Part shown: positions 9,009 to 35,067 of the stretch, piece by piece | How positions within the stretch are numbered: the stretch's first letter is position 1 | How the letters are laid out: every line of letters begins with the position of its first letter | Notes under the pieces: model-generated | Database searches by the model: none | What the model saw: the letters and a program-made list of their open reading frames with translations, nothing else | Told to the model about the DNA's origin: nothing | Virus record (IMG/VR): IMGVR_UViG_3300027782_000044 | Coordinates: 32,001-96,000 of that record | Direction: 5' to 3' (one strand) | Origin: a virus | Length of the DNA stretch: 64,000 nt | Made by a program: the position numbers and the translations under genes

Positions 9009-10589
9009 CTAGTTGACTTGTCTTCCATCTCCTTTTGCATTTCTGCCCTCCCCAGATTTATCTGGGGAATTTGCTGATCTCTCTTGGTCACGAGTTCTAC
9101 TTTGAGTAGCCTGAGCCTTAATTTCGGCTGCCTGGGCTGCAAGGTCTACTGGGACATCTCCACCTTCTCGTGGGACCATTCCCATTCTTACTCTAATTTC
9201 ATTTGGAGTAATTACCTGGAATCTAAGATATCTTTCATCTATTTTAGACTGAGTATCTGCATCTGTTAGAGAAAGCTCATTGAACTTTAGATCCATTGCA
9301 TCAGTCATTTCTTGAATTATTTTACTTAGCTTTTTTTCTAGATTTTGCTGTGCTGGAAGACAAACTTGCTCTTTAAATGTCTTATCTGCGTCTCTAGCTG
9401 CAGCCAAGTTAATCCCTGCTGGGGTGCCAATTTTATTAATTGGTACTCTGTGAGCCATTAATATTTCATCTCTATTTGAATTCCTATACTTTTCAAATGA
9501 ACCTTCTTGCGCCCCTGCTTCAATTGGCTCCATTTTAAATTCAGTTTTTGAGTCTGGTGAGTCTGGTGGAAGTGGTATATATAAAGATCTGTGGTTCTTT
9601 CCCTTTAATCCGACCTGGAAAAATTCAAGCAATTTTCTTTCAGATTCTGGAGAAAGCTTTGCTCCCTTTACTGTAATAATGTATCGAGGGACCGCTTTAT
9701 TTTCAAAATAATCTAAGTTATATTTACCAGCAAATTCGTTTCCAGCCATTGCATTTTGTGCAGCAATTATATCTGGGATTCCATAATAGTTATTTTTTGG
9801 GGTGTACTTTTTTAAATGAATAATTTCGTTAGGTCTATCTTCTTGTCCTGCTATAGGGTTTATTGTTTCTGTATCCCCAAAGTTTCTAAAGAATACAGCC
9901 TTGCCGTAAAGAAGCTGTATAAAACCGTCTCTAAGGCGTCTCACACGCATTGTCTTTGAGGGTATGTGGCCAATGTACCCAATCTTTCCAGTCGTCGTTC
10001 TACCGACCTCCAGATAGCCATTACCAGTAGCCTCTACGTCAGTATAGAACTTAATAAGTGTTTCTTTAAAAGTTTCATCTTCGTTACAATCTTCAAGCCA
10101 TTTATGCAAGTCTTGCTTAATTCTATTCAGCTTCTTACGTGCTCTTTCTAATTGCTTTTCATCATTAATTTCATCTAAGGCATCCGTTGTCTTTTTTGAT
10201 TCAATAAAATCAAATCCAAGACCGACTATGTTTGCTACCTTTGCATTTATAGCAGCGTAGTTGTATGGAGAAATTTCATAAATTGTTGATAGATAATCTA
10301 AGTTGTATTCTGGTTGAATTAGATCAAACGTGGCGTACCCGCTAACTGCTTGTTGATGTTGAAGCTGCTGGCTTACTGCGCCGTCTTTTCCAACAAAAGA
10401 TTTTTGCAGATCTCTAGAAACTTTTCTTCTAAATGAAGCTCCCAGTCCTGAAAGCTTTAAAATATCTTCGCCCTCTATATCAAATAGATCGTCTGATTTT
10501 TGAGTGGTTGGATTATTAAATCTCATCCAGTCCGCCACGTTAGAAACCTCTATGTTATTAATAAGCATATCGTCTTCATTCTCAATCAT
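9009..10589 (-). CDS. Portal protein
   Basis: DVEATGNGYLEV, NEIIHLK, YYGIPD, YFENKAVP, ILMAHRVP, TPNEIR portal motifs. Confidence 0.92.
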   Translation of the reverse strand: MIENEDDMLINNIEVSNVADWMRFNNPTTQKSDDLFDIEGEDILKLSGLGASFRRKVSRDLQKSFVGKDGAVSQQLQHQQAVSGYATFDLIQPEYNLDYLSTIYEISPYNYAAINAKVANIVGLGFDFIESKKTTDALDEINDEKQLERARKKLNRIKQDLHKWLEDCNEDETFKETLIKFYTDVEATGNGYLEVGRTTTGKIGYIGHIPSKTMRVRRLRDGFIQLLYGKAVFFRNFGDTETINPIAGQEDRPNEIIHLKKYTPKNNYYGIPDIIAAQNAMAGNEFAGKYNLDYFENKAVPRYIITVKGAKLSPESERKLLEFFQVGLKGKNHRSLYIPLPPDSPDSKTEFKMEPIEAGAQEGSFEKYRNSNRDEILMAHRVPINKIGTPAGINLAAARDADKTFKEQVCLPAQQNLEKKLSKIIQEMTDAMDLKFNELSLTDADTQSKIDERYLRFQVITPNEIRVRMGMVPREGGDVPVDLAAQAAEIKAQATQSRTRDQERSANSPDKSGEGRNAKGDGRQVN

Positions 10590-10930
10590 TTTTTACCACC
10601 ATTCAGCTTAGCCATCTCTTCTTTATGTACACTAATATCTAAAGGATCTGGAGTAAGTCCCCATCTTAATCTTTGCTTTTGATACTCAAACTCTTCGTCG
10701 TCAATTTGTCTGCTTCCCTCAATAAACTTAGGCTGGCCGACGTCAATTCCATAGTGAGCAACTGCTGATGCTAGCAGAGCAATTCTTTCTTTATTACCAA
10801 TCATTGATGCTATTGATAGGAAGTTGTTGTCTTCATCTCCAACCCATCTGCCATCTGGCATCTCCCAGACATAAACACCCAATCTGGTATCCCCAGATTT
10901 CATTTGAGCATTAATTCTTTTTATGTCCAT
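10586..10930 (-). CDS. Hypothetical protein upstream of portal
   Basis: Clean ORF overlapping the portal start, with its own -10 element. Confidence 0.6.
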   Translation of the reverse strand: MDIKRINAQMKSGDTRLGVYVWEMPDGRWVGDEDNNFLSIASMIGNKERIALLASAVAHYGIDVGQPKFIEGSRQIDDEEFEYQKQRLRWGLTPDPLDISVHKEEMAKLNGGKK

Positions 10931-10993
10931 AGTTAATTATTTTACCATCTTTATGTCTACAAGTCCAGCCTTTTGTCACCTGACCTGACAAAA

Positions 10994-12757
10994 TTACAGA
11001 GTTTGGAACACTACCCTGTCTCTTGAATATGTTGACACGGGGCCTTGTGTCAATGACATTGACGATCCTTGCCCAACAGATAAAGGCTTTCCTATATAGA
11101 GGTCGTAATGCTCTTGGTGGCTAATTAGAGGATTTGTGTACAGTGCAATATTTTGATATAAATTATCTTCGAGGACTCCAGTTCTTACTCCCAAAAGCTG
11201 CTTGCCATTAAACCAGATCTGACCACTTACTATTGAATTGGTTTTTATTAATATATAGTTAGGCTCATCTATATATAAGTATGAGGATATATTTGTTGCT
11301 GAGGATGCATCTTGGCCATTAATATAGATATTGCTTATATTGGCTTTTGATATTGCTCCGCCTGCCGCCCAAGAAAGGTAGGTTTCTGTAGATCCAGTTT
11401 TGTTAAATATTAAGTGGCCACTAGATAATGATTTTGGAGTAAATATCATTTCAATATTTCTAACATCTTCTGCTGAGTTTATAAAAAATGCTGAAGATTT
11501 TGGCCTTATACCGTTGTCATAGTTTCTGGTTCTAATTGGATATTTATTGTTGGACACATCAAAATCCCAAGTGCCCCCAATGGTTGGTTGCGAAGTAGAT
11601 AGAGTACTTCCTCCATTATGAGAAAACATCTTCTTCTCAGAATGAAAATAAATCTTTAAAGAGTAAAGTTCTGGCAAGTAAATGTCTGAGTTTGTAGATG
11701 TAAATACAAATCTAAAGTATAGTATTTTGGTTGAAGAAAATGCAGAACCTTGAGAAAAGCCTGGTATTGATGATCCATTTACACACGGTGTCCACGGTCC
11801 AGTTTCAGATGTTTCCGACACATATACTGAGACTCCTTTTGAAGCTACCCACTCTATCTTTGAAGATACATATTGATTTGTAATGTTTAAAACTATATCT
11901 TCTACAAATTCTCCGCTAGTAAATCCTGAATTTAAATAAATGCTATTGTTATTTTGATTATACGAAATTGCTGCATTATCATATATGAGGTCTTTCCAAG
12001 GTACCTGAACTGGATAAACATATTTTGTTGTTATGTCTTGGTATCTTTCTGCGCCTCTAAATAACTCACCTAACTCTGGAACTGCAATCTGCTCATCATT
12101 ATTTAAAAATAAATTATTGTAGTGTGATAGTATTGAGTTTCCAGAAAGAGCATATCTGTAAACTGCTGGGCAGTCTATTATAAAATGTTCACCTGCTGGC
12201 GCTGGTCCACATGATAGTGTTATACTTGTATTTGTAAAAGATATGGATATAGGTTTGCTTTCAACTAAAACTCCATCTATATACAAACTCATTGAGCTTA
12301 TAGAATACACTCCAACAATATGAAGCACTCTATTTGGATTAGGAACAGAGTAATCAAGCCTTTCATTTTCTAATTTAAATACTACGTTGCCATTATCCCA
12401 ATACAAACCAATTCCGTCTATGTCTGCAAATATTGGAGTTATAGATGTTAGCGTTTTTGGATGAAACCATGCTTCAAGCGTAAAGTCATTGTCATATGTT
12501 GATGGTGTTCCAAAACCTCCTGTGCCTGTGGTTCCAGAAAAATCTTTTGAAATAACAAACTGAATTGATTTAGTGCTATCTATTTTATTTGAATGTCGGC
12601 CACCAGAAACTATTGGCATGCCCGATATTTCAATTCCACCTACATAAGATCCATTATTACCGCAACCAGAAATATCATAAGCAACAGAACCTGAAGTCTC
12701 ATCAAGCTTCCATAGTCCAGTAGGTAAATCTTTTATTGTAGAAAGATAGTATGACAT
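10994..12757 (-). CDS. LamG/concanavalin A-like domain virion protein
   Basis: WKLDETSGSVAYDISG.GNNG, FTLEAW, HIVGVY....MSLYIDG LamG signature. Confidence 0.75.
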   Translation of the reverse strand: MSYYLSTIKDLPTGLWKLDETSGSVAYDISGCGNNGSYVGGIEISGMPIVSGGRHSNKIDSTKSIQFVISKDFSGTTGTGGFGTPSTYDNDFTLEAWFHPKTLTSITPIFADIDGIGLYWDNGNVVFKLENERLDYSVPNPNRVLHIVGVYSISSMSLYIDGVLVESKPISISFTNTSITLSCGPAPAGEHFIIDCPAVYRYALSGNSILSHYNNLFLNNDEQIAVPELGELFRGAERYQDITTKYVYPVQVPWKDLIYDNAAISYNQNNNSIYLNSGFTSGEFVEDIVLNITNQYVSSKIEWVASKGVSVYVSETSETGPWTPCVNGSSIPGFSQGSAFSSTKILYFRFVFTSTNSDIYLPELYSLKIYFHSEKKMFSHNGGSTLSTSQPTIGGTWDFDVSNNKYPIRTRNYDNGIRPKSSAFFINSAEDVRNIEMIFTPKSLSSGHLIFNKTGSTETYLSWAAGGAISKANISNIYINGQDASSATNISSYLYIDEPNYILIKTNSIVSGQIWFNGKQLLGVRTGVLEDNLYQNIALYTNPLISHQEHYDLYIGKPLSVGQGSSMSLTQGPVSTYSRDRVVFQTL

Positions 12758-12955
12758 TATTTCCTAAAAAATATCTTTTTAAATTTCCTTAACATATTAG
12801 AGGCAGATTGTTTATTTTTTTCATAAGCAGCGTCTGTTCTTTCAGTAAAGGCATGGCTCTTAAAGTACGGGTTGAATTGAAGGTCTGTAAAGTGCCTTCT
12901 AGGGATTCTTTTATAAGGAGTCATATTTAATATTATACTACAACAACTGCCAAAA

Positions 12956-13429
12956 TCAAGAGTCTAGTTTTTTATCAATTCCCAGATTTGATAAGAATCT
13001 TTCTGGGTCAAATCTCCAATTATCTTTGGCAAATGAGGTCATTATTTCCATGCAGGTATCTTCGTATGCTTGAATTGAGATTAAAGGCTTTAATTTCAAT
13101 AGGGTCTCTGTGACATCAATATAATTTGTTCTTAAAAAGCTAGGGTCTCCAGCCTGATTTCTCTTAAAGACCTTTTCATTAATTCTTCCATTGGGCTCAT
13201 ACAATCTAACTGTTAGATACTGCTTTGCAAAGCCCCAGTCTTCATACATATTATATGCTTCTGCTGCTTCAATTGCGTTAGGAAAGAAGATAATTGATCT
13301 TGCTGGTTCTTCCCCGTCTCTTGCAATTGTAAGCATATAGGCATCACCTTTTTTATTAGCTACCGCTTCAAGATACTCTTTAACTACATCGTGATGCTCT
13401 TGCTTTAGTTGTCCGCTCATTACGTCCAT
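12956..13429 (-). CDS. Hypothetical protein
   Basis: ORF coupled to upstream gene; C-terminal FAKDNWRFDPERF motif shared with 40478..40669. Confidence 0.55.
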   Translation of the reverse strand: MDVMSGQLKQEHHDVVKEYLEAVANKKGDAYMLTIARDGEEPARSIIFFPNAIEAAEAYNMYEDWGFAKQYLTVRLYEPNGRINEKVFKRNQAGDPSFLRTNYIDVTETLLKLKPLISIQAYEDTCMEIMTSFAKDNWRFDPERFLSNLGIDKKLDS

Positions 13430-14007
13430 CCCATGTTAAAATGTTCTCTATATTCTAGATAATCAATTGCATACGGGTCTACCCACCAGTCTTCATGCCA
13501 TTGCCTTACAACTAGCTTATAGCCGAGAGAGGATAAGATTTCTCGTTGGGCTTCTCTCATGCCTTTATTATTATATTCAATTTGGGCATCATGCTCAAAA
13601 GTTATTATAGAGTATCTGTATTTGCTTAATGGAACTGCTAATAGTCCATGCAGTGTTAGATAGGGATTTCCTACAGCATTTCCTTGTGGCGTATATCCAG
13701 CATCAATATCTACTTGCAGGTAATCAATTTGTTTTGGGAAATTATTTTCTTCAAAATATGAAAGGTAATTAAAATGCGTAGCATCTCCAAGGATACATGG
13801 GTTTTTTCTATTTGATACAAACTCTGCGTGTCTTTGCTTGTCTATCTCAAATGATACGCCGTTCCAATTATAGTCTGTTTCTAGATGATAGGTGTTGCTT
13901 CCTTGCTTTGAATCAAAAGCACCAAGCTCTACGTAAAACCCATTTTCTTTATTTTTAAGTAACTGAGTAACAAATCTTTCTTGACCACTATTACCTTTAT
14001 ATTCCAT
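13420..14007 (-). CDS. FkbM-like SAM-dependent methyltransferase
   Basis: GFYVELGAFD..GSNTY.LE...NWNGVSFE, IDYLQVDID, ITFEHD. Confidence 0.8.
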   Translation of the reverse strand: MEYKGNSGQERFVTQLLKNKENGFYVELGAFDSKQGSNTYHLETDYNWNGVSFEIDKQRHAEFVSNRKNPCILGDATHFNYLSYFEENNFPKQIDYLQVDIDAGYTPQGNAVGNPYLTLHGLLAVPLSKYRYSIITFEHDAQIEYNNKGMREAQREILSSLGYKLVVRQWHEDWWVDPYAIDYLEYREHFNMGWT

Positions 14008-14587
14008 TTATTTCTCCAAAAACATCTTTATTCAAAGACACAACTTCATTTAGTTTATGCTTTGCAAACATTGTAGATATGTATCTAGTTATATTATCTT
14101 GAACTGGAAGTGTTCCATGAAGTATCTCTCCAGCATGCAGAAGCAATGATCCTGCAATTGGTTTATGGGTTATCCCAAGATCTGGATACCTTAGCTCTCC
14201 GCCTTTATAGTCATCATTATAATAAATAACTACTCCATAAAAAACCTGTTCTCCATTAAGTCTGTGGCCATCATGATCATCTGTATGCTCACCAAGGGCA
14301 TCGTTTAGCATATATCTTTGAAGATTTATTCCAGTTACTTCTAGATTTCCATTAAATAAATTACAGACTCTTTTATATATATCACTAAATATAGACTCTT
14401 TATTTACTAAACTGCTATTTAAAACTTTGTCTGTCCAAAAATCATACTGTATACCCTCTTCAGACCAATCTAAATTATCTTTAGATTCAGCAAACTGCAT
14501 TACCTGATCAAGCTCGTCTTGTGTTATAAAATTTTGTATTTCATAAACTTGATCAGATAACTTTGCAATTTTATAGTCTAACATCAA
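13997..14587 (-). CDS. 2OG-Fe(II) oxygenase, prolyl 4-hydroxylase-like
   Basis: HTD...YYNDDYKGGEL...HGT....R. Confidence 0.88.
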   Translation of the reverse strand: MMLDYKIAKLSDQVYEIQNFITQDELDQVMQFAESKDNLDWSEEGIQYDFWTDKVLNSSLVNKESIFSDIYKRVCNLFNGNLEVTGINLQRYMLNDALGEHTDDHDGHRLNGEQVFYGVVIYYNDDYKGGELRYPDLGITHKPIAGSLLLHAGEILHGTLPVQDNITRYISTMFAKHKLNEVVSLNKDVFGEINGI

Positions 14588-14592
14588 CTACA

Positions 14593-15351
14593 TTATTCTT
14601 GGTTTTGTTCGTGATAGGCCTTTATGTATTCTTCTGATGGTCCACCTGGGCCACCTACAACATAACCATCAACAAATATAAATCCAGGAGTAATAAACTT
14701 TTCTCCTTCTTTCATAATATGAACTTGGTGCTTGTATGGATCTGTAGATGGGAAAATTAATGCGCTTCCAGCTTTTGGCTTTGCAGTAAATGTGACCATG
14801 TCTTTAGTCCTTGGGTCTAGCGCATCATCTGGTGGTCTAAGATGACCATTCATTTCTAATCTTAGATCTTCTGGTCTAATAACAAACGATATTTCTCCGC
14901 CTTCATAGTCATCATTCCAGTAAATAATAATTGACCACTCTAGGCTATTATCTCCAGCTTGTCTATCAAAGTGAGCTCCCATTGCACAGCCTGGAATATA
15001 CTTTTGTATACCAACAAACGGTGATACGTTTGGAACTCCCTTAAGGCCTCGATCAACAATAAAAGACTCTGATATATTCTTAATAGCATTTCTAATTGTT
15101 GATATAATTAGGTCGACATCTTTTCTTAAATCATCATCTAGGTTTTCTACTTCAGAAAGGTTAAAATCTTTTTTCTTTCCAAAGATGTTGCCGTCTCTGC
15201 TACTTGAATTCCAGTTTTTCCAGCTTGGAATAACCTTATGAACTCTTTCATCAGAATCAAGCTTATTAACTAAATCAATAATTGCCTGGGGGTTCTCAAT
15301 TACATCTGAATACATGTAAACATTTTCATGTAATTTTTCTTCTAGCTTCAT
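14593..15351 (-). CDS. 2OG-Fe(II) oxygenase, prolyl 4-hydroxylase-like
   Basis: HFD...YWNDDYEGGEI...FPS..PYKHQV. Confidence 0.88.
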   Translation of the reverse strand: MKLEEKLHENVYMYSDVIENPQAIIDLVNKLDSDERVHKVIPSWKNWNSSSRDGNIFGKKKDFNLSEVENLDDDLRKDVDLIISTIRNAIKNISESFIVDRGLKGVPNVSPFVGIQKYIPGCAMGAHFDRQAGDNSLEWSIIIYWNDDYEGGEISFVIRPEDLRLEMNGHLRPPDDALDPRTKDMVTFTAKPKAGSALIFPSTDPYKHQVHIMKEGEKFITPGFIFVDGYVVGGPGGPSEEYIKAYHEQNQE

Positions 15352-16094
15352 TTGTCGTTCTCCTCTATTTTATATTTATTTCCATCTAGATCTATTCGGT
15401 ATCCTTCTTTTAATGCATCTTGCCATTCTGACTTTATAACTTCCTGCTCTTCTCTAATTTTTTTCATTTCTGCATCCCAAGCGTCTATTGTTTCTTGTGG
15501 ATATGATTCTGGTGACCGATCATCCCAAAATGAACCTAGGGTGTATCTTATTCCAGAAGTTATCATTGTAACCTCATGAGTATTATCAAAGCCTCCTGCA
15601 AAAGCTGCTAGCGTTCCAGTCTCTGGGACAAGTGTATGATTTTGCTTGTTAAATATTAACTGACCGCCCTCAAACTCATCATTTAAATACAAGAAGGCTG
15701 CGTATCTACTTCTTTCAAATGGGCCAGTGTTTCCCTGCAAATCTGTATTGTCAGAATGCTCTTTAGCATAAGCTCCTGGCTCCCACTTTTGAGCATGAAA
15801 TCCAATTTTATGAATATCAAATGAAGAATTTCCATGCACCTCAGCTACAGCATCAATAATTCTATTTTGAAGAACTGAAAAAAAATCTGATGGCAAGCCG
15901 AACTGCTCTAGTTCTTCATCTCCGTCTTGGGGCAAAACTGATGAGTATGATTCATAGAAAGTGATAGGTGTCCAAGATAGCTTTTCATTTGCAACCTGCG
16001 CTTCTAAAACTTTTATAATTGCGGAAGATTCTTCTTTTGTTAAAAAGTTTTTAAACACTAAAATATCTGGCGTTAATCTTTCTGAAATACTCAT
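15348..16094 (-). CDS. 2OG-Fe(II) oxygenase, prolyl 4-hydroxylase-like
   Basis: HSD...YLNDEFEGGQL...HEV...GIRY. Confidence 0.88.
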   Translation of the reverse strand: MSISERLTPDILVFKNFLTKEESSAIIKVLEAQVANEKLSWTPITFYESYSSVLPQDGDEELEQFGLPSDFFSVLQNRIIDAVAEVHGNSSFDIHKIGFHAQKWEPGAYAKEHSDNTDLQGNTGPFERSRYAAFLYLNDEFEGGQLIFNKQNHTLVPETGTLAAFAGGFDNTHEVTMITSGIRYTLGSFWDDRSPESYPQETIDAWDAEMKKIREEQEVIKSEWQDALKEGYRIDLDGNKYKIEENDK

Positions 16095-16822
16095 TTATTT
16101 ATATCTCCATCTAGTAGTGTTCTATGATATTTTTTATTTGGATCTGGTTGGTTTTCTCCAGTATGCTCTAAAATTTCCCAGAAAAATGGACAAGTGTATC
16201 TTATAGCACCTTTAATTTCAGTTACTCCGTGGATATAATTCATATCGCCTGGGAAAAAATAAGCTGCTCCCTTTTTAGGTTTAAATTGAACTCCCTGTAG
16301 TGGAAAATATAATTCCCCACCTTCGTAATCATCATTCAAATAAAATAAGCTTGATAGATCGTAGTATGGAAAATCATTTGGCAATCCAATATCTGGAAGT
16401 TCATGAAGCTCTTTATCTGCATGTGGTTTCTGGAACTGTCCAGGAAGCCAACGAACAATTGTTGTTCCAGTTGGAGTTACTTTAACTTTATAAAAATCTT
16501 CAACAATTGGTTTTAGTCTTTCAAACAAACCCTGGAGAACGGGCCTAATTGCTGGATCATTTTTGTCTAAAGATGGGCTTGTGCAGACTCTATCTTTCCA
16601 ATAATTATGATCATATACGGTTGTACCATTTTCATTTACATGGCTCTCCGTTACATCCCAAATGGTAATCTTTCTAGCAGCTGCTTCAAGAAACTCTATT
16701 TCTTCTTGTGTCATAAAGTTTTCTAGCTCAACTATCATGTCCTTGCCAGATCCAAAAAATCCAGATGGGGTTAAAGATGGAGTCTTGTATACGACTGAAG
16801 CGTCTTGATTTGTTTGATTCAT
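16091..16822 (-). CDS. 2OG-Fe(II) oxygenase, prolyl 4-hydroxylase-like
   Basis: HAD...YLNDDYEGGEL...HGV...RY. Confidence 0.88.
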   Translation of the reverse strand: MNQTNQDASVVYKTPSLTPSGFFGSGKDMIVELENFMTQEEIEFLEAAARKITIWDVTESHVNENGTTVYDHNYWKDRVCTSPSLDKNDPAIRPVLQGLFERLKPIVEDFYKVKVTPTGTTIVRWLPGQFQKPHADKELHELPDIGLPNDFPYYDLSSLFYLNDDYEGGELYFPLQGVQFKPKKGAAYFFPGDMNYIHGVTEIKGAIRYTCPFFWEILEHTGENQPDPNKKYHRTLLDGDINK

Positions 16823-16834
16823 ATTCTTATTATA

Positions 16835-17551
16835 TCATTTCTCATTGCTTGAAGTAAGGTCAGTAATTTTTAACTTTAAAGACTTAACCTCATGGCTTCC
16901 AAGGACGGTGCCATCGTAATCTACTGCATCTCTATAGAAATTTGTGAATCCACCTGATTGAGTAATTTTATCCCAGGCCTTAAGTCTCGCTTGTCTACGT
17001 ATATGCTCTGACTCAGTAAATACTTTATCTTTTACTTCGAGCTCTACATTTTGATACTCTGACAAAGATATAGGGATAAATGTTGCCACTGGCATGCCCG
17101 CTGGAATCTTTATAACAGTATTCGGTCTTGTTATTTTCCATGCAATTGGTATGCCCTCTTTTAAAACAGATGTTGAAATAATTGTTGTAAATGGAGTAGC
17201 TCCATCTACAAAAAAATTAGGAGGAACTATTTGAAGCATTGAAACATTTGGATCCGTCTCAAAGAAAAACCCAGAGTAAAAACTAATTGTGCCATTTGCT
17301 CTTTGGCCAGTAGCAACTTGTGCTGGATCCGATATTATCTTTACATGATCTGGAGTCGTATCTGAAATACCATCCCAACTGAACTCAATATCATCTAAAA
17401 ATGAGATTGACCAACCAATTGTATTTGCCAAAGAAACTGGAAAACATTTGTATGCATGGGCATTTAGAGTTTCATCCATCCAGTCTCTTTTAACTTTAGT
17501 TTGTTCTATTTTAGACCTAGTCTGTTTATTTTTATAGGCTGTTATTTTCAT
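16835..17551 (-). CDS. DUF6065-like protein
   Basis: RDWMD.T...HAY.C.P..LAN..GW and WKITRP...I.IPAG.P resemble DUF6065; start moved to MKITAY. Confidence 0.65.
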   Translation of the reverse strand: MKITAYKNKQTRSKIEQTKVKRDWMDETLNAHAYKCFPVSLANTIGWSISFLDDIEFSWDGISDTTPDHVKIISDPAQVATGQRANGTISFYSGFFFETDPNVSMLQIVPPNFFVDGATPFTTIISTSVLKEGIPIAWKITRPNTVIKIPAGMPVATFIPISLSEYQNVELEVKDKVFTESEHIRRQARLKAWDKITQSGGFTNFYRDAVDYDGTVLGSHEVKSLKLKITDLTSSNEK

Positions 17552-18242
17552 TGATTTCGTTATCCCATTTTGGATCATACATCTCTTGAGTATGAAATTT
17601 TTTACTATAGTCAAGCATAGTTACTATAGAATATTTTGTTCCTTTGGTTACAGCTTTTGCTTGATGAGGGTACATAAAGTTAGATGGGAAAATATAAAGG
17701 TCTCCAGCTCTTGGCTTAATATCTAGGCCCTGAAGTCTAAAATACAATCCTCCATCATCATAGTCATCGTTAACATAACCAACCAAGGACACAACGCAAT
17801 TATAAGAATATCCGTGGTCTTGGTGCTCCATAAAATGTTGGCTTTCTCCATATTTAATAAAATTAAAAGCTTCCCAATATTTAAGCTCCATAATATTATG
17901 CGCTTTGCAGTAATCTACAACTACTGGATATTGAGCATCATAAACATCTTGCCATAGAGATTTTAACTTTTCAGCATCTTCACTTTTATCAAGAGCTATA
18001 TCGCTTTTTTTAAATTTGAAATCTACGCAATCTCTATAGTCTGGCATTAACTGTTGATACCCAACATAAGCTGGCTGATAAGAATATCTTTTTTCTTTAC
18101 TGCCAACTGGACCAACTGAGCCTTCAAGTCTATTTATAATGTCAAATTCTTTTTTTAATACGTCTCTATATACAAATATTCCAGGAGCCAACTCTTCTTT
18201 GCTACTCCATGTTGGAGATGTGCTTTTCTTTTCTGTTGTCAT
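17532..18242 (-). CDS. 2OG-Fe(II) oxygenase, prolyl 4-hydroxylase-like
   Basis: HQD...YVNDDYDDGGL...FPSNFMYPH...GTKY. Confidence 0.88.
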   Translation of the reverse strand: MTTEKKSTSPTWSSKEELAPGIFVYRDVLKKEFDIINRLEGSVGPVGSKEKRYSYQPAYVGYQQLMPDYRDCVDFKFKKSDIALDKSEDAEKLKSLWQDVYDAQYPVVVDYCKAHNIMELKYWEAFNFIKYGESQHFMEHQDHGYSYNCVVSLVGYVNDDYDDGGLYFRLQGLDIKPRAGDLYIFPSNFMYPHQAKAVTKGTKYSIVTMLDYSKKFHTQEMYDPKWDNEINENNSL

Positions 18243-19000
18243 TTATATTCTCTCTTTTTCCAAATTTTTGACTTATACACTCCACCGTCGGGCTGACGAT
18301 AAAACTTTGCATTATCCATTAGTTTTTTTTGCATTTCTTTTACATCAAGATACTCAACTTCGTGGCTCCAGTCTTCTCTTTTAAATGGAAGTACTTGTAG
18401 AAATGGTGTGCCTTTTGGGACAGTTCCTTCCCAATCTTTTGCAATAAAAAATGGAAATGTACCAAGTAAGTGGACCTCATCATTATCAACAATACCGCTG
18501 GTATTCAAGAAAGGCAAATCAAATCTATTCATTGGTGTCATAAATAATGCACTGTATCCTTTTGGAACTTGAATTCCCCATTCTGGGTACCAAGCAAAAT
18601 GATCTTCGTGATAACCAACTGGAGATGGAAATTGCTGCATAGGAGGTCTTTCTGTTACAAAGCCTACATGCTTTTTATCTTTTATCTCTACAGATATTTT
18701 TCCCTTTTTATTTTTTGAAAAAAATAAATCGCATGGCGTGCTTAATACATATCCAGTCATAAATGCATCTAGTATTGCTGGGCAAGCCTTCCATGTTGGA
18801 ATTTTACCATAGTCATCTTTTGTGCCTTCCCTTGGGATAGGGCAAACCTCTTTAGTGGCTTTATAGTATTCTCCATTTGGCATTTTTGCAAATCTGTCCG
18901 CCTCTTTGTACCATTCAGGAATACTGCCCTGAGTTGGCTTTGGTAAAGAAGGGCTGAATTTATCTAGCCATGGTCTAAAAGATTGAAATAGTATTTTAAT
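18239..19000 (-). CDS. Hypothetical oxygenase-associated protein (DUF6065/dUTPase-like beta fold)
   Basis: PEWYK...TWKACPAILD...GY, PKGYS.LF..P.NR, GIVD.D, GTP..Q..PFKRE; frame open upstream of the listed ATG (18883) to an ATT at 19000. Confidence 0.6.
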   Translation of the reverse strand: MKILFQSFRPWLDKFSPSLPKPTQGSIPEWYKEADRFAKMPNGEYYKATKEVCPIPREGTKDDYGKIPTWKACPAILDAFMTGYVLSTPCDLFFSKNKKGKISVEIKDKKHVGFVTERPPMQQFPSPVGYHEDHFAWYPEWGIQVPKGYSALFMTPMNRFDLPFLNTSGIVDNDEVHLLGTFPFFIAKDWEGTVPKGTPFLQVLPFKREDWSHEVEYLDVKEMQKKLMDNAKFYRQPDGGVYKSKIWKKREYK

Positions 19001-19700
19001 ATTTTTGTCCAGTCTCTTCTTTATGATAGAGATCGTTATAATCCATCATAATAACTACAGAATATTTTGTTCCAGATGATATATTTAAAGAAGCATGCTC
19101 GTAAACAAAGTTAGATGGAAACAGTATTATATCTCCTGCTTTTGGTTTTAAAATCATATCATGTCTTGGAAATTCAATTTCTCCGCCCACGTAATCATCA
19201 TTTAAATATACAACTGCTGATACCGTACATGTGTAATATGGACCATGGTCAGCATGTATTTTAAAAAACTCTCCTGGTAAATATTTTACAAAGTTAAATG
19301 CTTCTTTATAATTAATATTAAAATTCCATTCTGATTCATAATGTCTTAATGCTTTATTTAATCCAATATCAACAATATCATAGCATTCTCTTAAAACATC
19401 ACTGTCAGAAATATATTTACCAATTTGATCTTTTTTAAATTTTAAATCATAACAATTTCTGGCATGAGTAGTTCTATCTTTTCCATTAACTCTTGCGCCA
19501 TTCCATTGAATTCCAACTTTTTCTAAAGATATTTCTTCTTCAAGCATGGCAATTAGATTTTGGCAGTCTTCTTTACTTATTGCATTTCTATAAAGATTTA
19601 TCCCGTATTCAAGGTTTTCAACAACAATGTTTTCATCAATTTTTTTTGATTCAACTCTTGAAGTTGTTTTTTCAATTCTTGGTAGGTCATACCATTCCAT
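18996..19700 (-). CDS. 2OG-Fe(II) oxygenase, prolyl 4-hydroxylase-like
   Basis: HAD...YLNDDYVGGEI...FPSNFVYEH...GTKY; paralogue of 17532..18242. Confidence 0.88.
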   Translation of the reverse strand: MEWYDLPRIEKTTSRVESKKIDENIVVENLEYGINLYRNAISKEDCQNLIAMLEEEISLEKVGIQWNGARVNGKDRTTHARNCYDLKFKKDQIGKYISDSDVLRECYDIVDIGLNKALRHYESEWNFNINYKEAFNFVKYLPGEFFKIHADHGPYYTCTVSAVVYLNDDYVGGEIEFPRHDMILKPKAGDIILFPSNFVYEHASLNISSGTKYSVVIMMDYNDLYHKEETGQKY

Positions 19701-19762
19701 AGTATCTCATTTCTACTATAACATCTTATCATACTATTCAAGAAAAGAAAAGTATATTTTAT

Positions 19763-21361
19763 TTAGTATCCTCTAAAGTATGGGAAGTACGGTCCGCCGC
19801 CAAAACTTGGGAAGAACGGTGGGAAGAACGGTCCAAATGATGGGAAGTATGGTGGGAAGAACGGTCCAAATAATGGGAAGAACGGGAAGCTTGGTCCCTT
19901 AAAGAACGGGAAGTATGGTGGGAAGAACGGCGGGAAGAATGGTGGGAAGAATGGGAAGAACGGTGGGAAGAACGGCGGGAAGAATGGTGGGAAGAATGGT
20001 GGGAAGAATGGGAAGAAGGGTGGGAAGAACGGTGGGAAGAACGGTGGGAAGAACGGTGGGAAGAATGGGAAGAACGGTGGGAAGAACGGTGGGAAGAACG
20101 GGAAGAACGGTGGGAAGAATGGTGGGAAGAATGGGAAGAACGGTGGGAAGAACGGTGGGAAGAACGGTGGGAAGAACGGTGGGAAGAACGGCGGGAAGAA
20201 TGGGAAAAACGGAGCTATGGTAGTAATATTAGCACTATTATTTGAAGCTAAAGATGTTCCATTAGCATTAGTTGCTGTAGCTGAATATGTTTGAGAAGTA
20301 TTTGCTGTATCAGCAATAATAGTAGTTGTTGCATTTGCTGCTAGGTTTCCAGATACAGAAGCATCTGATCCAGTAACATTGTGCCGTGTTAATGCAGATC
20401 CTCCAGAAGCTCCTATTTGCCAGTTAATTGTATTTTGATTAACGCCAGCTGTTGCTGTTAAGTTTTGTGGTGCTTGAGGAACTGTAGTTGCCGTAACTGA
20501 ACTTGATGTTGTGGCTTCTGATGTTCCATTAGCATTTGTTGCTGTTACGCTAAAAGTATAAGCTGTTGCTGAGCTAAGACTTTGAATGGTTATTGGGGAA
20601 GCTCCAGAACCAGTAAGAGCGCCAGATGTGGCAGTATAAGAGGTAATTGCAGAACCACCAGTAGCGCCGCCAGTTGCTGTAATGGTTACTGCACCATTAT
20701 TATATGCTCGACCAATTCCTACGTCTGCTACTGTTACAGTTGGTGCTTGAGGAACTGTAGTTGCCGTAACTGAACTTGATGTTGTGGCTGCTGATATTCC
20801 ATTAGCATTTGTTGCTGTTACGCTAAAAGTATAAGCTGTTGCTGATGCAAGGCCTCCAATAGTTAATGGAAGTAATCCCGAACCACTAAGAGCTCCAGAT
20901 GTAACAGTGTAAGCGGTAATTGCAGAACCACCAGTGGCGCCACCTGTTGATGCTAAAGTTATTGCACCATCATTATATGCTCGTCCTGTTCCTACATTTG
21001 TTGCTGTTATTGTTGGTGCTTGAGGAACTGTAGTAACGGTAATAGCTCCAGTTGCTGCTGAAACAATTGAGGTTCCTGCTGCATTTGATGCTGTCATGCT
21101 AAATGTTGGAGTTGCTCCAGAAGCAATTCCTTCAACAGTAATTGGTGAAGAAGATCCTGTTCCTGTTTGGCCAGTACTTGCTGTTACTGTAAAAGATGTT
21201 GCTGCAGGGGATGCTGCTGGTAAAGTAAAGGTTATTGTCACCGCTCCATTATTAAATGGTCGAGATGTTCCAACGTTTGAAGCTCCAGTAATTGTTGGTT
21301 GGCTTGGCTCTAAGAAATTATCTTGAGCCGATGATTTTATACCTCTTCTTTTACTTGCCAT
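19763..21361 (-). CDS. Fibronectin type III repeat protein with C-terminal Pro/Phe repeat tail
   Basis: Four FN3-like units (VPQAP...GGSAITxYT...YTFSVTATNANG) followed by ~145 aa of (PPFF/PFF)n. Confidence 0.85.
   Translation of the reverse strand: MASKRRGIKSSAQDNFLEPSQPTITGASNVGTSRPFNNGAVTITFTLPAASPAATSFTVTASTGQTGTGSSSPITVEGIASGATPTFSMTASNAAGTSIVSAATGAITVTTVPQAPTITATNVGTGRAYNDGAITLASTGGATGGSAITAYTVTSGALSGSGLLPLTIGGLASATAYTFSVTATNANGISAATTSSSVTATTVPQAPTVTVADVGIGRAYNNGAVTITATGGATGGSAITSYTATSGALTGSGASPITIQSLSSATAYTFSVTATNANGTSEATTSSSVTATTVPQAPQNLTATAGVNQNTINWQIGASGGSALTRHNVTGSDASVSGNLAANATTTIIADTANTSQTYSATATNANGTSLASNNSANITTIAPFFPFFPPFFPPFFPPFFPPFFPPFFPFFPPFFPPFFPFFPPFFPPFFPFFPPFFPPFFPPFFPPFFPFFPPFFPPFFPPFFPPFFPFFPPFFPPFFPPYFPFFKGPSFPFFPLFGPFFPPYFPSFGPFFPPFFPSFGGGPYFPYFRGY
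19780..20212. repeat. Coding tandem repeat of 12-nt and 9-nt units encoding PPFF/PFF
   Basis: GGGAAGAACGGT and GGGAAGAAT units repeated about 35 times. Confidence 0.95.
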
Positions 21362-21388: not shown

Positions 21389-24300
21389 TTATGCGCTTAG
21401 ATCTCCAGCAAGTAACCATGTGTCTGTTGCGACCTTAGTTAATGTTGCTGATGAGTATGTTGTTCTTAATTTTAAACCTGGTGTACGAAGAATTGTGACT
21501 CCTACTGCTTCAACAAAGTTTGCACCTGTTCCAGCTGATTGATAGAAATCAATTGATGTTCCAATTGGGAAAGCTAATGTTGCATTTGTTGGCACTGTCA
21601 CTGCAAATGTTCCTGAAATTGGAATTAACTGATCTCTTAATGTAAGACCATGAGTTGGACCTGAAACTCCACCTGTTCCTAGGTTATATGCTGCTCCAAT
21701 TGTTGTTCCAATTGTTGTAAGTGATGGTACGCCAGCTTTTGTTTGTGTTCCATCTGTAAATGCTACGCCTGCTGCTGCAACTGTTACTGTACCAGTAAAT
21801 GTTGGTGAAGCAAGTGGAGCTTTTAGGCCAATGCTATTTGTAATTGTTGTTGAGAATGATGCATCATTTCCAAGAGCAGTTGCCAACTCATTAAGAGTAT
21901 TAAGAGCTGCTGGTGCTGATGCTACAAGATCTGACACTGCTGTTCCTACAAATGCTGTAGTTGCAACTTGTGTAGTATTTGTTCCAGCTGTTGCTGTTGG
22001 GGCTGTTGGAACACCTGTAAGTGCTGGTGAGGAAAGCGGTGCTTTCAAATCAAGTGCGGATGTTAGCCCTGAAATTTTAGATTGTGCAATTGCGGCTGAG
22101 GCGCTTATGTCTCCATCTACAATTGTTAAATCTGCAATCTTTGCTGAAGTAACTGCAGAATCTGCAATTTTTGCAGTTGATACAGCTACGTCTGCAATAT
22201 CTGCTGTTGCAACTGCTCCGTCAGCAATCATTCCAGTAGTAATTGTTCCAGTAGGAAGAGTTACTGTACCAGTAAATGTTGGTGATGCTAGTGGGGCATA
22301 TGTTGAGGCTGCAGTTGCTGAAGATAACTTAGTATCAATCTGAGTTTGAATGGCTGATGTTACTCCATTTACATATCCAAGTTCTGTTGCATCAACTGTT
22401 GAAGAGATTGCTAACTTAGTCCAATCAATTGCTGCTGTGGCATTTATATCAGAGTTAACAATTGTGCCTGCAACAATTTTTGCAGAAGTAATTGAATCGT
22501 CTGCAATTTTAGCAGTAGTTATTGCTGCATCTGCAATTTTTGCAGTTGATACAGCTACGTCTGCAATATCTGCTGTTGCAACTGCTCCGTCAGCAATCAT
22601 TCCAGTAGTAATTGTTCCAGTAGGAAGAGTTACTGTACCAGTAAATGTTGGTGAGGCTAATGGTGCTTTAAGATCAAGCGCTGTCTGAGTAGCAGTTGAT
22701 ATTGGCTTAGCTGCGTCTGAAGTATCGTCAGCATTTGTTAATCCTACCATTGCTTTAGTAACACCAGATACTGTACCAGTAAATGTTGGTGATGCAATTG
22801 GTGCTTTGAGGTCAAGTGCTGTCTGAGTAGCAGTTGATATTGGCTTTCCCAAATCTGATGTATTATTAACATTTGATAAGCCAACATCTGACTTTACAAT
22901 TCCAGTTGGTGTAGTAATTGATGGAGATGTAAGTGTTTTGTTAGTTAATGTTTGTGTACCAGATAGCGTTGCTACTGTTGAATCAATATCAATTGTAATT
23001 GTATTTGCTACATCATCATATACTTTATCTAAACCATTTCCAGCAATTATTGCTGTATTAACAGCATCTTGAGCCAGCTCTGTTATAGCAGAAGAATCTG
23101 CTTTTAGGTCAAGCGCTGTCTGAGTAGCAGTTGATATTGGCTTAGCTGCGTCTGAAGTGTTATCTACAGATCCAAGACCAACCATTGCTTTAGTAACACC
23201 AGATACTGTACCAGTAAATGTTGGTGATGCAATTGGTGCTTTAGAGTCAATTTGAGTTTGAATAGCTGAAGTAACTCCATTTACATATCCAAGTTCTGTT
23301 GAATCAACTAAACCTATTGATGTTGTCGAAGGCAGTGTAACTGTACCAGTAAATGTTGGTGCTGCTAATGGTGCCTTAAGATCAAGCGCTGTCTGAGTAT
23401 CAGTTGATATTGGCTTAGCTGCGTCTGAAGTGTTATCTACAGATCCAAGACCAACGTCTGCTTTAACTAAGCCAGATGGAGAGGTAATTGTTTTATTTGT
23501 AAGAGTTTGAGTTTCAGTTGTTCCAACAACTACTCCTGGAAGGCTTTTGCCTAAAACAGTAGTTAATGTCAGGATATCAATATTATTTATTTTAACTGTT
23601 TTATCAGCAGGAAGATTAATGTTTTCTGAAAAATCCCATGCCGATTTTGCAACACTATATTTAATTGACTTATCTGTTGTTCCCTTTAATATAATTCCAC
23701 CAGTATCTGCTCCTGCATCAGTTGGACTTGATGTTTGTCCTAAAACAATATCCTTGTCTTGAACAGTAAGGGTTGTTGAGTTAATTGTTGATGTCGTTCC
23801 ATTTACTGTCAAGTTGCCAGAAAGTGTTAGATTAACTGCAGTTGCATCTCCAGTAATTGCTGGTGAATTTAGTGGAGCTTTTAAGTCTAAAGCTACAAGA
23901 GTAGCATTTGATACTGGCTTCAAGGCATCTGATGTATTATCTACATTTGAAAGTCCTACTGAAGATTTTGTAAGTGCTGATACTGCAGTTGATATTTTAG
24001 TGTCTGCTGCAGTTCCAGATGAGGCAATTGCTTCTGATTTAGCAGTAGCTACGTTTGCTGTAGTTGCTAGTAGTGAAGTATTTGCAATTCCGTGAATATT
24101 AGTAGTATCTAATTCGTGTGTTGAAAGTGCTGATGCTGCTGCGGCAATTGCTGCATCTTGAGCTGTATTAGCTTTTGCAGTTGCATCAGTTCCCGCTGCT
24201 GTAATGGCTTCTGATTTAGCAGTAGCTACATTTGTTGTAGTTGCAAGAGCGGCTGTATCTGCAATACCGTGTACGCCAGTTGTATCAGATTCGTGAGTTG

Positions 24301-24748
24301 CGATTGCAGCAGAAATAGCTGCTGTTGCTGATATTTCCCGCCAGTTACCATTTGTACTTGCAGGGGAAGAAGCAAGTACATATGTTGTGCCGTTGTCTGA
24401 CTGAATTGCAATATCTCCAGGTTCTGCTGTTAAAGCCAAACGTGCAGCTTGGTTAGCTGCTGAAGAAACTGTTACTTTAGCAAGTGGGGGTAGCTGTGCT
24501 GAAGGAATAAATCCTGATGAGTCTAATGAGGCAACTCCATTTGCAACACCTTTAGTGCTTAAAAGAATATAATCGTCTACCGTTTGTGAGAGAGCATAAC
24601 TTAATGAATTCCAAGGGGTGCTTCCATCTCCAAATTTAAATGTGTTGGTATCTGTTTCAATACCAATTTCTCCTGCTGCTAGTGTTGGGTTGGCGGCATC
24701 CCATTGATCTGCTTCGCCTCTTCTTAATTGTAATCTAACTGTTGCCAT
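21389..24748 (-). CDS. Long fibre protein with Mtd/hyaluronidase-type N-terminal domain and internal repeats
   Basis: RLQLRRG...W..ANPTLAAGEIGIETDT..FKFGDG N-terminus; repeated VGL..VDNTSD..KPISTATQTALDLKAP.ASPTFTG; APAALNTLNELA.AL motif. Confidence 0.8.
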   Translation of the reverse strand: MATVRLQLRRGEADQWDAANPTLAAGEIGIETDTNTFKFGDGSTPWNSLSYALSQTVDDYILLSTKGVANGVASLDSSGFIPSAQLPPLAKVTVSSAANQAARLALTAEPGDIAIQSDNGTTYVLASSPASTNGNWREISATAAISAAIATHESDTTGVHGIADTAALATTTNVATAKSEAITAAGTDATAKANTAQDAAIAAAASALSTHELDTTNIHGIANTSLLATTANVATAKSEAIASSGTAADTKISTAVSALTKSSVGLSNVDNTSDALKPVSNATLVALDLKAPLNSPAITGDATAVNLTLSGNLTVNGTTSTINSTTLTVQDKDIVLGQTSSPTDAGADTGGIILKGTTDKSIKYSVAKSAWDFSENINLPADKTVKINNIDILTLTTVLGKSLPGVVVGTTETQTLTNKTITSPSGLVKADVGLGSVDNTSDAAKPISTDTQTALDLKAPLAAPTFTGTVTLPSTTSIGLVDSTELGYVNGVTSAIQTQIDSKAPIASPTFTGTVSGVTKAMVGLGSVDNTSDAAKPISTATQTALDLKADSSAITELAQDAVNTAIIAGNGLDKVYDDVANTITIDIDSTVATLSGTQTLTNKTLTSPSITTPTGIVKSDVGLSNVNNTSDLGKPISTATQTALDLKAPIASPTFTGTVSGVTKAMVGLTNADDTSDAAKPISTATQTALDLKAPLASPTFTGTVTLPTGTITTGMIADGAVATADIADVAVSTAKIADAAITTAKIADDSITSAKIVAGTIVNSDINATAAIDWTKLAISSTVDATELGYVNGVTSAIQTQIDTKLSSATAASTYAPLASPTFTGTVTLPTGTITTGMIADGAVATADIADVAVSTAKIADSAVTSAKIADLTIVDGDISASAAIAQSKISGLTSALDLKAPLSSPALTGVPTAPTATAGTNTTQVATTAFVGTAVSDLVASAPAALNTLNELATALGNDASFSTTITNSIGLKAPLASPTFTGTVTVAAAGVAFTDGTQTKAGVPSLTTIGTTIGAAYNLGTGGVSGPTHGLTLRDQLIPISGTFAVTVPTNATLAFPIGTSIDFYQSAGTGANFVEAVGVTILRTPGLKLRTTYSSATLTKVATDTWLLAGDLSA
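22165..23455. repeat. Near-identical internal DNA repeats in the fibre gene
   Basis: ~22165-22290 matches ~22525-22650; ~22670-22810 matches ~23105-23240 and partly ~23340-23455. Confidence 0.8.
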
Positions 24749-33771: not shown

Positions 33772-34404
33772 ATGGACTCGTATTTAAGCAGATGGACTGA
33801 AGACCAAGATTTTGTAAAACTACATAATGATTTTAATTTAATATGTAACATACAAAATTCTATGGACAATGCCCAGTACGGAAGAATATATATACTTAGG
33901 CAATTAGCAAGACATCAATCTGTAGTAAACCCTGATTTAAATTTTGCTGAGTCTGGTGTATACGCTGGAATGACAATGTTTTTTACCGCCGAGTTCTGTA
34001 ATAAATCTTTTATAGGCATTGATTCTTGGGAAGGTGTTTCTGAGCCAGGAGAATTCGATACAGAATATTTTAAAACAGTAAAGTTAAAATCTGAAATGGC
34101 GTGGGCAAAAAACAACCTATCTAGATACAAAAATATAGAATTAAAAAAAGGCTGGATACCAGAAGTATTTAAAGACATAGAAGATAAGCAATACTCATTT
34201 GTACATGTAGATGTAGACCTATATGAACCAACAAAAGAATCTATAGAGTACTTTTGGCCTAAAATAGTTTCTGGTGGGGTATTAATATGTGATGACTACG
34301 GATCTTATAAAACAGAAGGATCTAGGAAAGCTGTAAAAGATGCTTTTGAAAACCACAATATACTTGAGTTGCCGACTGGCCAGGCTATTATGTGGAAGAA
34401 ATGA
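33772..34404 (+). CDS. TylF/MycF-family O-methyltransferase
   Basis: FAESGVYAG, DSWEG, KGWIP, FVHVDVDLYEPT, GGVLICDDYG. Confidence 0.85.
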   Translation: MDSYLSRWTEDQDFVKLHNDFNLICNIQNSMDNAQYGRIYILRQLARHQSVVNPDLNFAESGVYAGMTMFFTAEFCNKSFIGIDSWEGVSEPGEFDTEYFKTVKLKSEMAWAKNNLSRYKNIELKKGWIPEVFKDIEDKQYSFVHVDVDLYEPTKESIEYFWPKIVSGGVLICDDYGSYKTEGSRKAVKDAFENHNILELPTGQAIMWKK

Positions 34405-34416: not shown

Positions 34417-35067
34417 ATGACTACTTGGATGAAAAAAGAATTTGAAGATAGTGGATATTCTGTAGAGTGCCCTATTGATGGGCTTCTAGTTGTTAAAAAT
34501 TTTATAACACCAGAAGAAATTGAAGAATATAAATCTATTATTGCAAATATTACGGAAGAGCAATGGGATGAGTGGTATACAAGCCAATTAAAAGTTTTTA
34601 CAAAACAAAAATTTGGAAGAGAAGATGTTGAAAATTTAGTCAAAGAAGGTTTGTATGAAATAACATCAAACTGGAATGACAAAAACTATTCATTTATCAA
34701 CGCAGAAATTCATAGAAGAATAGATAAAAGATTTAATGATGTTCTTGAAAAAACAGATGAAGGACTAATATTGAGTGGATTTTATTTCTTTCAAAGAATG
34801 TACGACGGTGTTCAGCTAGTATCCCATCATGATCAAAACACAGATGAATCAATTAAGCATGCTGCAGTAATATATATAAATGACGATTATAATGGTGGAG
34901 AAATTTTTTGGGCTAAAAAGAATTTTGAAATGAAACCAGCCCCTGGAGATCTTTTACTATTTGGTGGAGATCCAGAGTGGGAACACGGAGTAAGGTTTGT
35001 AACGGAAGGACCTATGAGATATGTCCTTCCAGGATTTATAAAGATACCTAACTTTTATAAGCCTTAA
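34417..35067 (+). CDS. 2OG-Fe(II) oxygenase, prolyl 4-hydroxylase-like
   Basis: HHD...YINDDYNGGEI...HGV...RY. Confidence 0.85.
   Translation: MTTWMKKEFEDSGYSVECPIDGLLVVKNFITPEEIEEYKSIIANITEEQWDEWYTSQLKVFTKQKFGREDVENLVKEGLYEITSNWNDKNYSFINAEIHRRIDKRFNDVLEKTDEGLILSGFYFFQRMYDGVQLVSHHDQNTDESIKHAAVIYINDDYNGGEIFWAKKNFEMKPAPGDLLLFGGDPEWEHGVRFVTEGPMRYVLPGFIKIPNFYKP

Follow-up and report, generated by a model that had tools for sequence, protein, structure and literature searches.

A 64,000-nucleotide stretch of viral DNA (IMG/VR virus record IMGVR_UViG_3300027782_000044, positions 32,001 to 96,000; hereafter the window, numbered from its first letter) carries a block of genes at 13420-21361 on the minus strand. 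The block begins with the gene of an FN3-repeat protein that ends in a long polymer of proline and phenylalanine (PF tail), followed by nine tightly packed downstream genes, six of which encode Fe(II)/2-oxoglutarate (2OG) dioxygenases. Across phage genomes, such tracts and such enzymes were found together and adjacent in searches from either side, with an upstream control. We infer a functional link between tail and enzymes and consider it well supported, because of this co-occurrence in both directions and because sequence profile and predicted fold both place the first enzyme of the block, Ox6, with the peptidyl-prolyl hydroxylases. As to its nature, we lean by a small degree towards the PF polymer being the hydroxylation substrate of at least the core enzymes, because of the polar, short-range linkage across protein architectures, the prolyl-hydroxylase enzyme type, and a viral precedent.

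An earlier note on this DNA, made from its letters, had described the PF tail, six divergent HxD..H oxygenases behind it on the same strand, two DUF6065-like proteins and an FkbM-like methyltransferase, all within a virion-gene region. This observation was confirmed except for the methyltransferase, since the gene in question (13420-14007) matched no library. The functional part of the proposal, a tail acted on by the enzymes, is supported in part, and Ox6 is assigned to the peptidyl-prolyl hydroxylase type.

The PF-tail protein

The first gene of the block (19763-21361, minus strand) is an open reading frame (ORF) for a protein of 532 aa, the candidate substrate. Pfam fn3 (PF00041) matched it with 39.5 bits against a cut-off of 25, and a 273-nt DNA repeat in 2.1 copies underlies two fn3 domains. 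Residues 383-532 form the tail; 61 Pro and 70 Phe make up 87% of these 150 residues, for which the earlier estimate had been about 145. The first 98 residues of the tail are Pro and Phe only, arranged as PPFF and PFF, except for one Ala. Beyond them the tract drifts to PPYF, GP, PSF, and GGGPYFPYFRGY.

The coding DNA of the tail, stop codon included (19763-20215, minus strand), consists of 25.7 tandem copies of a 12-nt unit (86% matches). Its proline codons include 35 CCA and 25 CCG, and its phenylalanine codons are 64 TTC and six TTT; the repeat copies therefore differ by synonymous changes in the PF reading frame. An independent metagenome contig matched 13420-19946 without a difference and breaks inside the repeat, so the exact tract length depends on one assembly. 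The summed contig depth in one lake metagenome was about 7000 over the PF repeat (window 19780-20309) vs. about 35 in the flanks. This approximately 200-fold excess fits a PF repeat that is common to many phages or genomes. Full-text literature searches found no description of a Pro-Phe tract, of DUF6065, or of a link between the tract and oxygenases. The earlier note had also pointed to the cyclic peptides antamanide and cyclolinopeptide A; what they have in common with the tail is the tetrapeptide only, and a closer link is not supported.

The six oxygenases

The genes behind the PF-tail gene lie on the same strand as it does and are separated by 4-nt overlaps or short gaps. All six block oxygenases passed the gathering score of PF13640 (27 bits), with 30-45.9 bits. 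Counted from the tail gene, and all on the minus strand, they are Ox6 (18996-19700; 42.2 bits), the first gene after the tail gene and of prolyl-hydroxylase type; Ox5 (17532-18242; 45.9 bits), 34% identical to Ox6; Ox4 (16091-16822; 34.7 bits), whose type is a core array member elsewhere; Ox3 (15348-16094; 37.4 bits), which keeps the HxD..H motif; Ox2 (14593-15351; 36.7 bits), with a 27-residue insert in the barrel; and Ox1 (13997-14587; 30 bits), the most divergent of the six, with HxD..H also kept. Identity of the block paralogues to Ox6 is 20-34%. The HxD..H triad (H149, D151, and H202 in Ox6) is invariant in all eight aligned PF13640 proteins of the window, and the same three residues are invariant among 35 Ox6 relatives. 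Approximately 10 residues past the distal His, all eight aligned proteins have a Lys or Arg, which we take, by analogy, to be the ligand of the 2OG C5 carboxylate.

A family profile of Ox6 built with the 35 relatives was compared with PDB sequences. The best matches were prolyl 4-hydroxylases (P4H; 3itq, 5hv0, and 5iax; 1.1e-10), with the Bacillus anthracis P4H at this value, followed by prolyl 3-hydroxylase 1 (P3H1; 1.2e-7), the PBCV-1 enzyme 5c5t (1.1e-6), and lysyl hydroxylases (about 2e-6). Ox6 was the only paralogue folded; its AlphaFold model has a predicted local distance difference test score (pLDDT) of 84.8. Foldseek searches with this model returned nearly exclusively peptidyl-prolyl hydroxylases (E about 1e-11, template modelling (TM) score 0.56-0.74). 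The top matches were PHD2 with an HIF peptide, a Pseudomonas P4H, an algal P4H with a (Ser-Pro)5 peptide, and vCPH of PBCV-1; the EF-Tu-modifying P4H 4iw3 was among the close fold matches, and the one exception, PolD, stood at rank 29. Sequence profile and predicted fold thus both assign Ox6 to the peptidyl-prolyl hydroxylase type.

Linkage of tract and enzymes across phages

A scan of IMG/VR for DNA coding for (PPFF)3 gave at least 119 stretches. In 116 of the 119 listed, the motif lies within an open frame; the encoded proteins have 120-1500 aa, and the motif is usually close to their C-terminus. Homologues of the window enzymes were detected with phmmer in 84 of the 119 listed loci, many of the remaining loci being only 1-5 kb long. 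Among the 80 PF ORFs with an enzyme match in the locus, the nearest match lay downstream for 78, and for 62 it shared the strand of the PF ORF; the median gap was 288 nt. As an internal control, the 5-kb flanks of 110 distinct PF ORFs were compared; 202 oxygenase genes were found in 351 kb downstream vs. three in 249 kb upstream. Tracts within 60 residues of the C-terminus were counted separately where at least 3 kb of downstream DNA was available. Oxygenases followed within 5 kb in 46 of 47 such cases, and in the lone miss a second small PF gene lies beside the enzymes. Five PF loci without nearby enzymes were followed into their whole records: one has six PF13640 genes elsewhere, one gave a weak match, and the remaining three are 5-26% fragments in which no enzymes were found.

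The scan from the enzyme side gave at least 594 viral stretches coding for relatives of DUFb, one of the two DUF6065-type proteins of the block, and the best 80 (67-95% identity) were inspected. A same-strand ORF with a Pro-aromatic repeat was present within 4 kb upstream in all 55 that had more than 3 kb of upstream flank and in 18 of the 25 with shorter flanks. The sequence accompanying the results from the polymer side and the enzyme side is INDEPENDENCE. In this respect the co-occurrence and adjacency of PF tail, oxygenases, and DUF6065 that the earlier note had asked about was borne out.

By their N-terminal parts, the PF proteins form 13 clusters. Enzymes follow FN3-type PF proteins (61 members) as well as small PF proteins of about 125 aa (21 members), which are little more than the tract itself and for which the first oxygenase gene frequently lies on the other strand. 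They also follow a type rich in Cys, two types extended C-terminally beyond the tract, and the singletons L055 and L069. The arrays contain from one to 12 enzyme genes. Of 34 arrays compared, 33 include an Ox5/6-type gene, 29 one of DUF6065 type, and 27 one of Ox4 type, which together make up a recurring core; the gene order Ox5 then DUFa (the other DUF6065-type protein) recurs as well. The oxygenase type encoded outside the block at 34417-35067 of the window lies within the array in other phages, and genes of the glutathione-peroxidase family are interleaved with the oxygenases in another phage lineage (L073:5671-6270 and 10365-10982).

Sister phages were collected through their portal genes; 39 of the loci had 9 kb or more of flanking DNA and were counted. 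Enzymes and tract were both present in 25 and both absent in 10; a tract alone was never seen, and enzymes alone were seen in four. Three of these four are cut by the locus edge, and the fourth has a non-cassette oxygenase type together with three DUF6065-like genes. The tracts of some sister phages read GPPGFF/SPPSFF or SPPFFPPGFF, with Pro-Pro and Phe-Phe retained.

Several relatives (L228, L236, and the first ORF of L258; L055, L062, L066, and L025) have non-terminal tracts with a conserved extension behind them; it is about 170-200 residues long and begins near a Cys or after the tract. Pfam searches with five extension-bearing proteins gave two sub-threshold matches (Intein_splicing, 2.2e-3; Hint_2, 8e-4) and none for the other three. 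A Hint domain in the extensions was therefore not accepted, as only two of five matched and both were under the threshold.

DUF6065-type proteins and the last gene of the block

DUFa (16835-17614, minus strand) matched PF19541 (DUF6065) at 1e-33 with 117 bits against a cut-off of 26.6, and at 4.4e-35 in the whole-genome search; its true start is probably the ATG at 17551. DUFb (18239-18883, minus strand) had no Pfam match even at E up to 1 and is tied to DUF6065 only through phrog_7084 (6e-32), which DUFa also matches (5.6e-6), and through shared invariant Cys and Gly residues. These residues, C34 and G44 in DUFb numbering, are invariant in 44 sequences spanning both subfamilies. The model of DUFb (pLDDT 86.9) is predicted to contain a dUTPase-like barrel. 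With Foldseek the best match to dUTPases/dCTP deaminases had E 3.9e-4 and TM 0.33/0.42, and in a wide VIA-align search the top 23 rows were all dUTPase-type folds with Z at most 7.0. By these measures the resemblance to dUTPases/dCTP deaminases is moderate.

A protein search with DUFa gave 719 homologues, of which the 120 listed are close phage-type relatives without informative names. DUF6065 clusters in the Atlas search were mostly viral, and tblastn of DUFa against cultured phages gave no match. A complex prediction for Ox5 with DUFa scored 0.00; it was made without controls and speaks neither for nor against binding. DUFb relatives with 25-37% identity occur in Halorubrum phage HF2 and 48 other haloarchaeal virus records, all tailed viruses. 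The HF2 relative (L279:48119-49003) adjoins the baseplate/VP1 block, and no oxygenase is annotated nearby.

The last gene (13420-14007, minus strand) had been called an FkbM-like methyltransferase. Its product matched nothing in Pfam (E up to 1), NCBIfam, PHROGs, or PDB sequences, and none of these four hidden Markov model (HMM) or profile searches confirms an FkbM-type methyltransferase (PF05050). The sole lead comes from the ESM Atlas, where a neighbour cluster at rank 6 (score 0.97) has PF05050 on 52% of its members, and a methyltransferase role is accordingly kept as a lead only. The idea that the tail is decorated further depended on this call and is to that extent unsupported. Homologues of this gene close the array in six of the 34 arrays.

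Genomic setting and probable host

The IMG/VR record that carries the window is 116.5 kb long and rated 97% complete. Directly upstream of the PF-tail gene lies the gene of a 1119-aa tail-fibre protein (21389-24748, minus strand), which matches many tail-fibre PHROGs (e.g., phrog_35419, 4.9e-46). The other side of the block is likewise a virion-gene setting, with a LamG-domain protein (10994-12757, minus strand), the portal (9009-10589, minus strand), and, in the minus-strand gene order, a head protease and a capsid-type protein. The virion-gene region described before is thus real, and the PF-tail block lies at the end of the fibre genes of the phage, the 1119-aa protein setting the fibre-module context.

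The portal is 57-59% identical to the portals of Streptomyces phages, and a WhiB-family gene (E 3.3e-13) is present outside the window (G000:C1:98135-98308, minus strand). WhiB proteins are typical of actinobacteria and their phages. The host is therefore probably actinobacterial, despite a G+C content of 35-43%. Freshwater and lake metagenome runs of several studies contain the window stretch. Neither megablast of the block nor tblastn of the PF-tail protein gave a match among cultured phages, which the low-complexity filter or the removal of near records may explain.

Three tRNA genes were found in the window, Ile-TAT (36201-36276), Asp-GTC (43986-44062), and Arg-CCG (52703-52774). A TylF/Methyltransf_24-type O-methyltransferase (33772-34404, plus strand) lies directly upstream of the oxygenase gene at 34417-35067. 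The minus-strand region 53640-59315 is a second group of putative peptide-modifying genes; it lies apart from the PF genes and consists of PF13640 oxygenases (53640-54422 and 56504-57343), an Asp/Asn beta-hydroxylase-type cupin (55091-55717), a 280-aa ORF without assigned function, and a radical SAM/SPASM protein (58317-59315, minus strand).

Proposed role of the block and alternative explanations

According to the reading that we favour, the block would be a substrate-plus-enzymes module closing the fibre genes. The FN3-repeat protein would carry a genetically encoded (Pro-Pro-Phe-Phe)n polymer at its C-terminus, and the core enzymes would be the Ox5/Ox6 type, the Ox4 type, and a DUF6065 partner with the conserved Cys. 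The P4H-type dioxygenases would hydroxylate the prolines of the polymer, and perhaps other positions, post-translationally, and the product would be a stiffened or further modifiable extensin-like appendage. The six paralogues may divide the work by position or context. The peripheral Ox1-3 and the last gene would be dispensable, because arrays elsewhere lack them. We infer the location of the protein in the virion, the residues modified, and the role of DUF6065.

Several observations weigh against this reading. A second PF tract, of 32 residues inside a 917-aa fibre-like protein encoded outside the window (L281:6563-9316, corresponding to G000:C1 about 10562-13315; minus strand), is 36 kb from the array and has no oxygenase beside it; about 90 more residues follow this tract, and the gene adjoins that of a 1225-aa fibre-type protein. 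The window encodes oxygenases away from any PF gene, namely at least three PF13640 proteins (34417-35067, plus strand; 53640-54422 and 56504-57343, minus strand) and an Asp/Asn beta-hydroxylase-type cupin (55091-55717, minus strand). Among internal tracts with enough flank, an oxygenase was present within 5 kb in 12 of 19 and none in seven. DUF6065-type genes without oxygenases occur in the sister phages L261, L264, and L267 and in haloarchaeal viruses. No Pro/aromatic tract was found in 13 proteins checked around the dioxygenase array of phage Syn9, where the best 30-residue window held at most 13% of the scarcer class; therefore the array type exists without a PF tail. Since the Syn9 array is tractless and the oxygenases of this genome lie partly away from PF genes, such arrays need no PF tail in general. 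The earlier note had held that an oxygenase block occurring independently of PF-tail genes would speak against its proposal, and such independence is found in part, in Syn9 and among the dispersed oxygenases here, alongside the linkage described above.

The number of enzymes is a further difficulty, as six to twelve paralogues exceed what a two-residue polymer seems to need. The 10 sister loci without tract and enzymes all have 77-80% portal identity, so that their co-absence may be a single gain or loss event, and the co-occurrence counts overstate the number of independent events because many contigs are relatives. The diverse N-terminal architectures and the variable array content temper this concern over kinship. 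Contigs from RNA libraries touch four genes and cover only 6 and 5 of 30 bins; their uncovered parts are uninformative, and contigs cannot show transcription.

Among the alternatives, the enzymes might hydroxylate other proteins of the virion, the large tail fibres among them, or host proteins, much as a bacterial P4H modifies EF-Tu, the tract being a spacer or anchor at the end of the fibre module. The position of the array behind fibre genes both here and in the tractless Syn9 would suit such targets, as would the PF tracts that form internal linkers in giant fibre-like proteins without nearby enzymes, the 917-aa protein of this genome among them, and the close fold match of Ox6 to 4iw3. We nevertheless consider it unlikely, since the polarity of tract then enzymes and their short spacing persist across unrelated N-termini, including near-pure tracts of 125 aa, and the upstream flanks, where the fibre genes are, hold just three oxygenase genes in 249 kb. 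An array that makes or tailors a small molecule or non-ribosomal peptide, with the tail gene as an unrelated neighbour, appears quite unlikely. Neither synthetase, halogenase, nor transporter was found in the block with Pfam and PHROGs, in sequence and in fold Ox6 is closest to peptidyl-prolyl hydroxylases rather than to small-molecule oxygenases, with PolD as the one exception, and the linkage to the tract would be left unexplained. What speaks for a small molecule is the secondary-metabolite proposal for the homologous Syn9 array in the part of Iyer 2010 (PMC2938197) that deals with it, together with the TylF-type O-methyltransferase beside one oxygenase and the radical SAM/SPASM protein near others in this genome, and the glutathione-peroxidase-type genes in arrays elsewhere.

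The earlier note had offered a tail resembling a ribosomally synthesized and post-translationally modified peptide (RiPP). The tract would then be a multi-core precursor from which, after modification, many short Pro-Phe peptides are cleaved. The small PF proteins (about 125 aa) do resemble a leader with a repeated core, some relatives have a post-tract extension with weak Hint/intein similarity, and the DUF6065 proteins have an invariant Cys. Yet searches of the block with Pfam, PHROGs, and NCBIfam found no protease, macrocyclase, or recognition-element family, and no cleavage motif recurs along the tract. The carriers are mostly structural proteins of FN3 or fibre type, here an FN3 protein of 532 aa, and the Hint matches, present in only two of five extension-bearing proteins scanned, are under the threshold. 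The RiPP-like tail is unsupported and regarded as very improbable. Hardly any weight is given to a modification of nucleic acids, in which TET/JBP- or AlkB-like oxygenases and dUTPase-fold proteins would act on phage DNA or nucleotides. The Tet_JBP matches of Ox1 and Ox4 that suggest it (20.1 and 17.7 bits) are below the cut-off of 34.9, and the resemblance of the DUF6065-type model to dUTPases/dCTP deaminases is moderate (Z up to 7.0, TM 0.3-0.57). Moreover, the fold matches of Ox6 are protein hydroxylases, and the block lies in the late structural module, away from the replication genes.

Tandem 2OG/Fe oxygenase arrays rank among the commonest unexplained gene sets of aquatic phages, and the simple genetically encoded polymer that directly precedes the array in many contigs is a directly testable candidate substrate. 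If the tract is hydroxylated as we propose, this would be post-translational hydroxylation of virion-associated proteins in bacteriophages, a role for DUF6065 would be defined, and a Pro-Phe polymer for which no description was found in print would be described. Even without hydroxylation, the tract is a widespread component of phage fibre proteins that has so far gone undescribed. In its widest form the proposal is that phages of freshwater, probably actinobacterial, hosts encode a Pro-Pro-Phe-Phe protein material, located terminally or internally in fibre-region proteins, that a dedicated hydroxylase array with DUF6065 partners, one paralogue per position, matures into an extensin-like, possibly cross-linked or adhesive virion appendage, and that phage dioxygenase arrays, a type known since Syn9, thereby gain a first protein substrate. 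We put forward this complete picture only tentatively.

Comparison with known systems

Phage dioxygenase arrays and viral P4H enzymes with Pro-rich repeats are known kinds of systems, and the polymer itself is undescribed in the literature found. For the tandem dioxygenase array of Syn9, the relevant part of the paper by Iyer and colleagues (2010, Nucleic Acids Res 38:5261, PMC2938197) puts forward a role in making secondary metabolites, with no protein named as substrate. As far as the array is described there, it shares with the present block divergent classical 2OG/Fe dioxygenases in tandem and one protein with a conserved Cys and a dUTPase-like fold, the latter in the present block a moderate resemblance of the model. 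In Syn9, gp41-gp54 form the array and immediately follow the fibre genes gp32-gp39, an arrangement matched by the present block and its fibre gene, and hhalign aligned Syn9 gp43 with the DUFb family with a probability of 95.4% (E 1.9e-8). Because of this shared position and alignment, the two are the same kind of module. They differ in that the part of the paper on Syn9 gives its array two tryptophan halogenases and a JmjC/MINA member, none of which was found among the 10 block proteins with Pfam and PHROGs, and in that a PF-tail gene heads the block here, whereas the Syn9 array has no Pro/aromatic tract. Syn9 gp40 (L280:12455-12949), just upstream of the halogenase/dioxygenase array, ends in a Trp/Tyr/Pro-rich sequence.

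Extensin-type P4H of plants and algae (Chlamydomonas 3gze and 2jig) are monomeric enzymes that act on extended proline-rich polymers, and the predicted fold of Ox6 matches 3gze at E 4.3e-11. Unlike the substrates in extensin systems, the tract here has no Ser-Pro motif, and no glycosyltransferase was found among the block proteins with Pfam and PHROGs. No described counterpart of the aromatic-rich PF repeat was found in the literature.

By analogy, the closest functional precedent appears to be the viral P4H of PBCV-1, which, according to the part of a review that treats it (PMC3634087), hydroxylates the prolines of Pro-Ala-Pro-Lys repeats. Both there and here a virus encodes a P4H-type enzyme alongside a Pro-rich repeat protein, and the Ox6 model matches the fold of PBCV-1 vCPH (5c5t) with E 5.7e-11 and TM 0.57/0.72. 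The repeat is PAPK in PBCV-1 vs. Pro-Pro-Phe-Phe here. In PBCV-1 one enzyme of a eukaryotic virus is involved, whereas the phage system described here has six to twelve paralogues with DUF6065 partners, and, unlike in PBCV-1, adjacency of the genes for the enzymes and for their candidate substrate is the rule.

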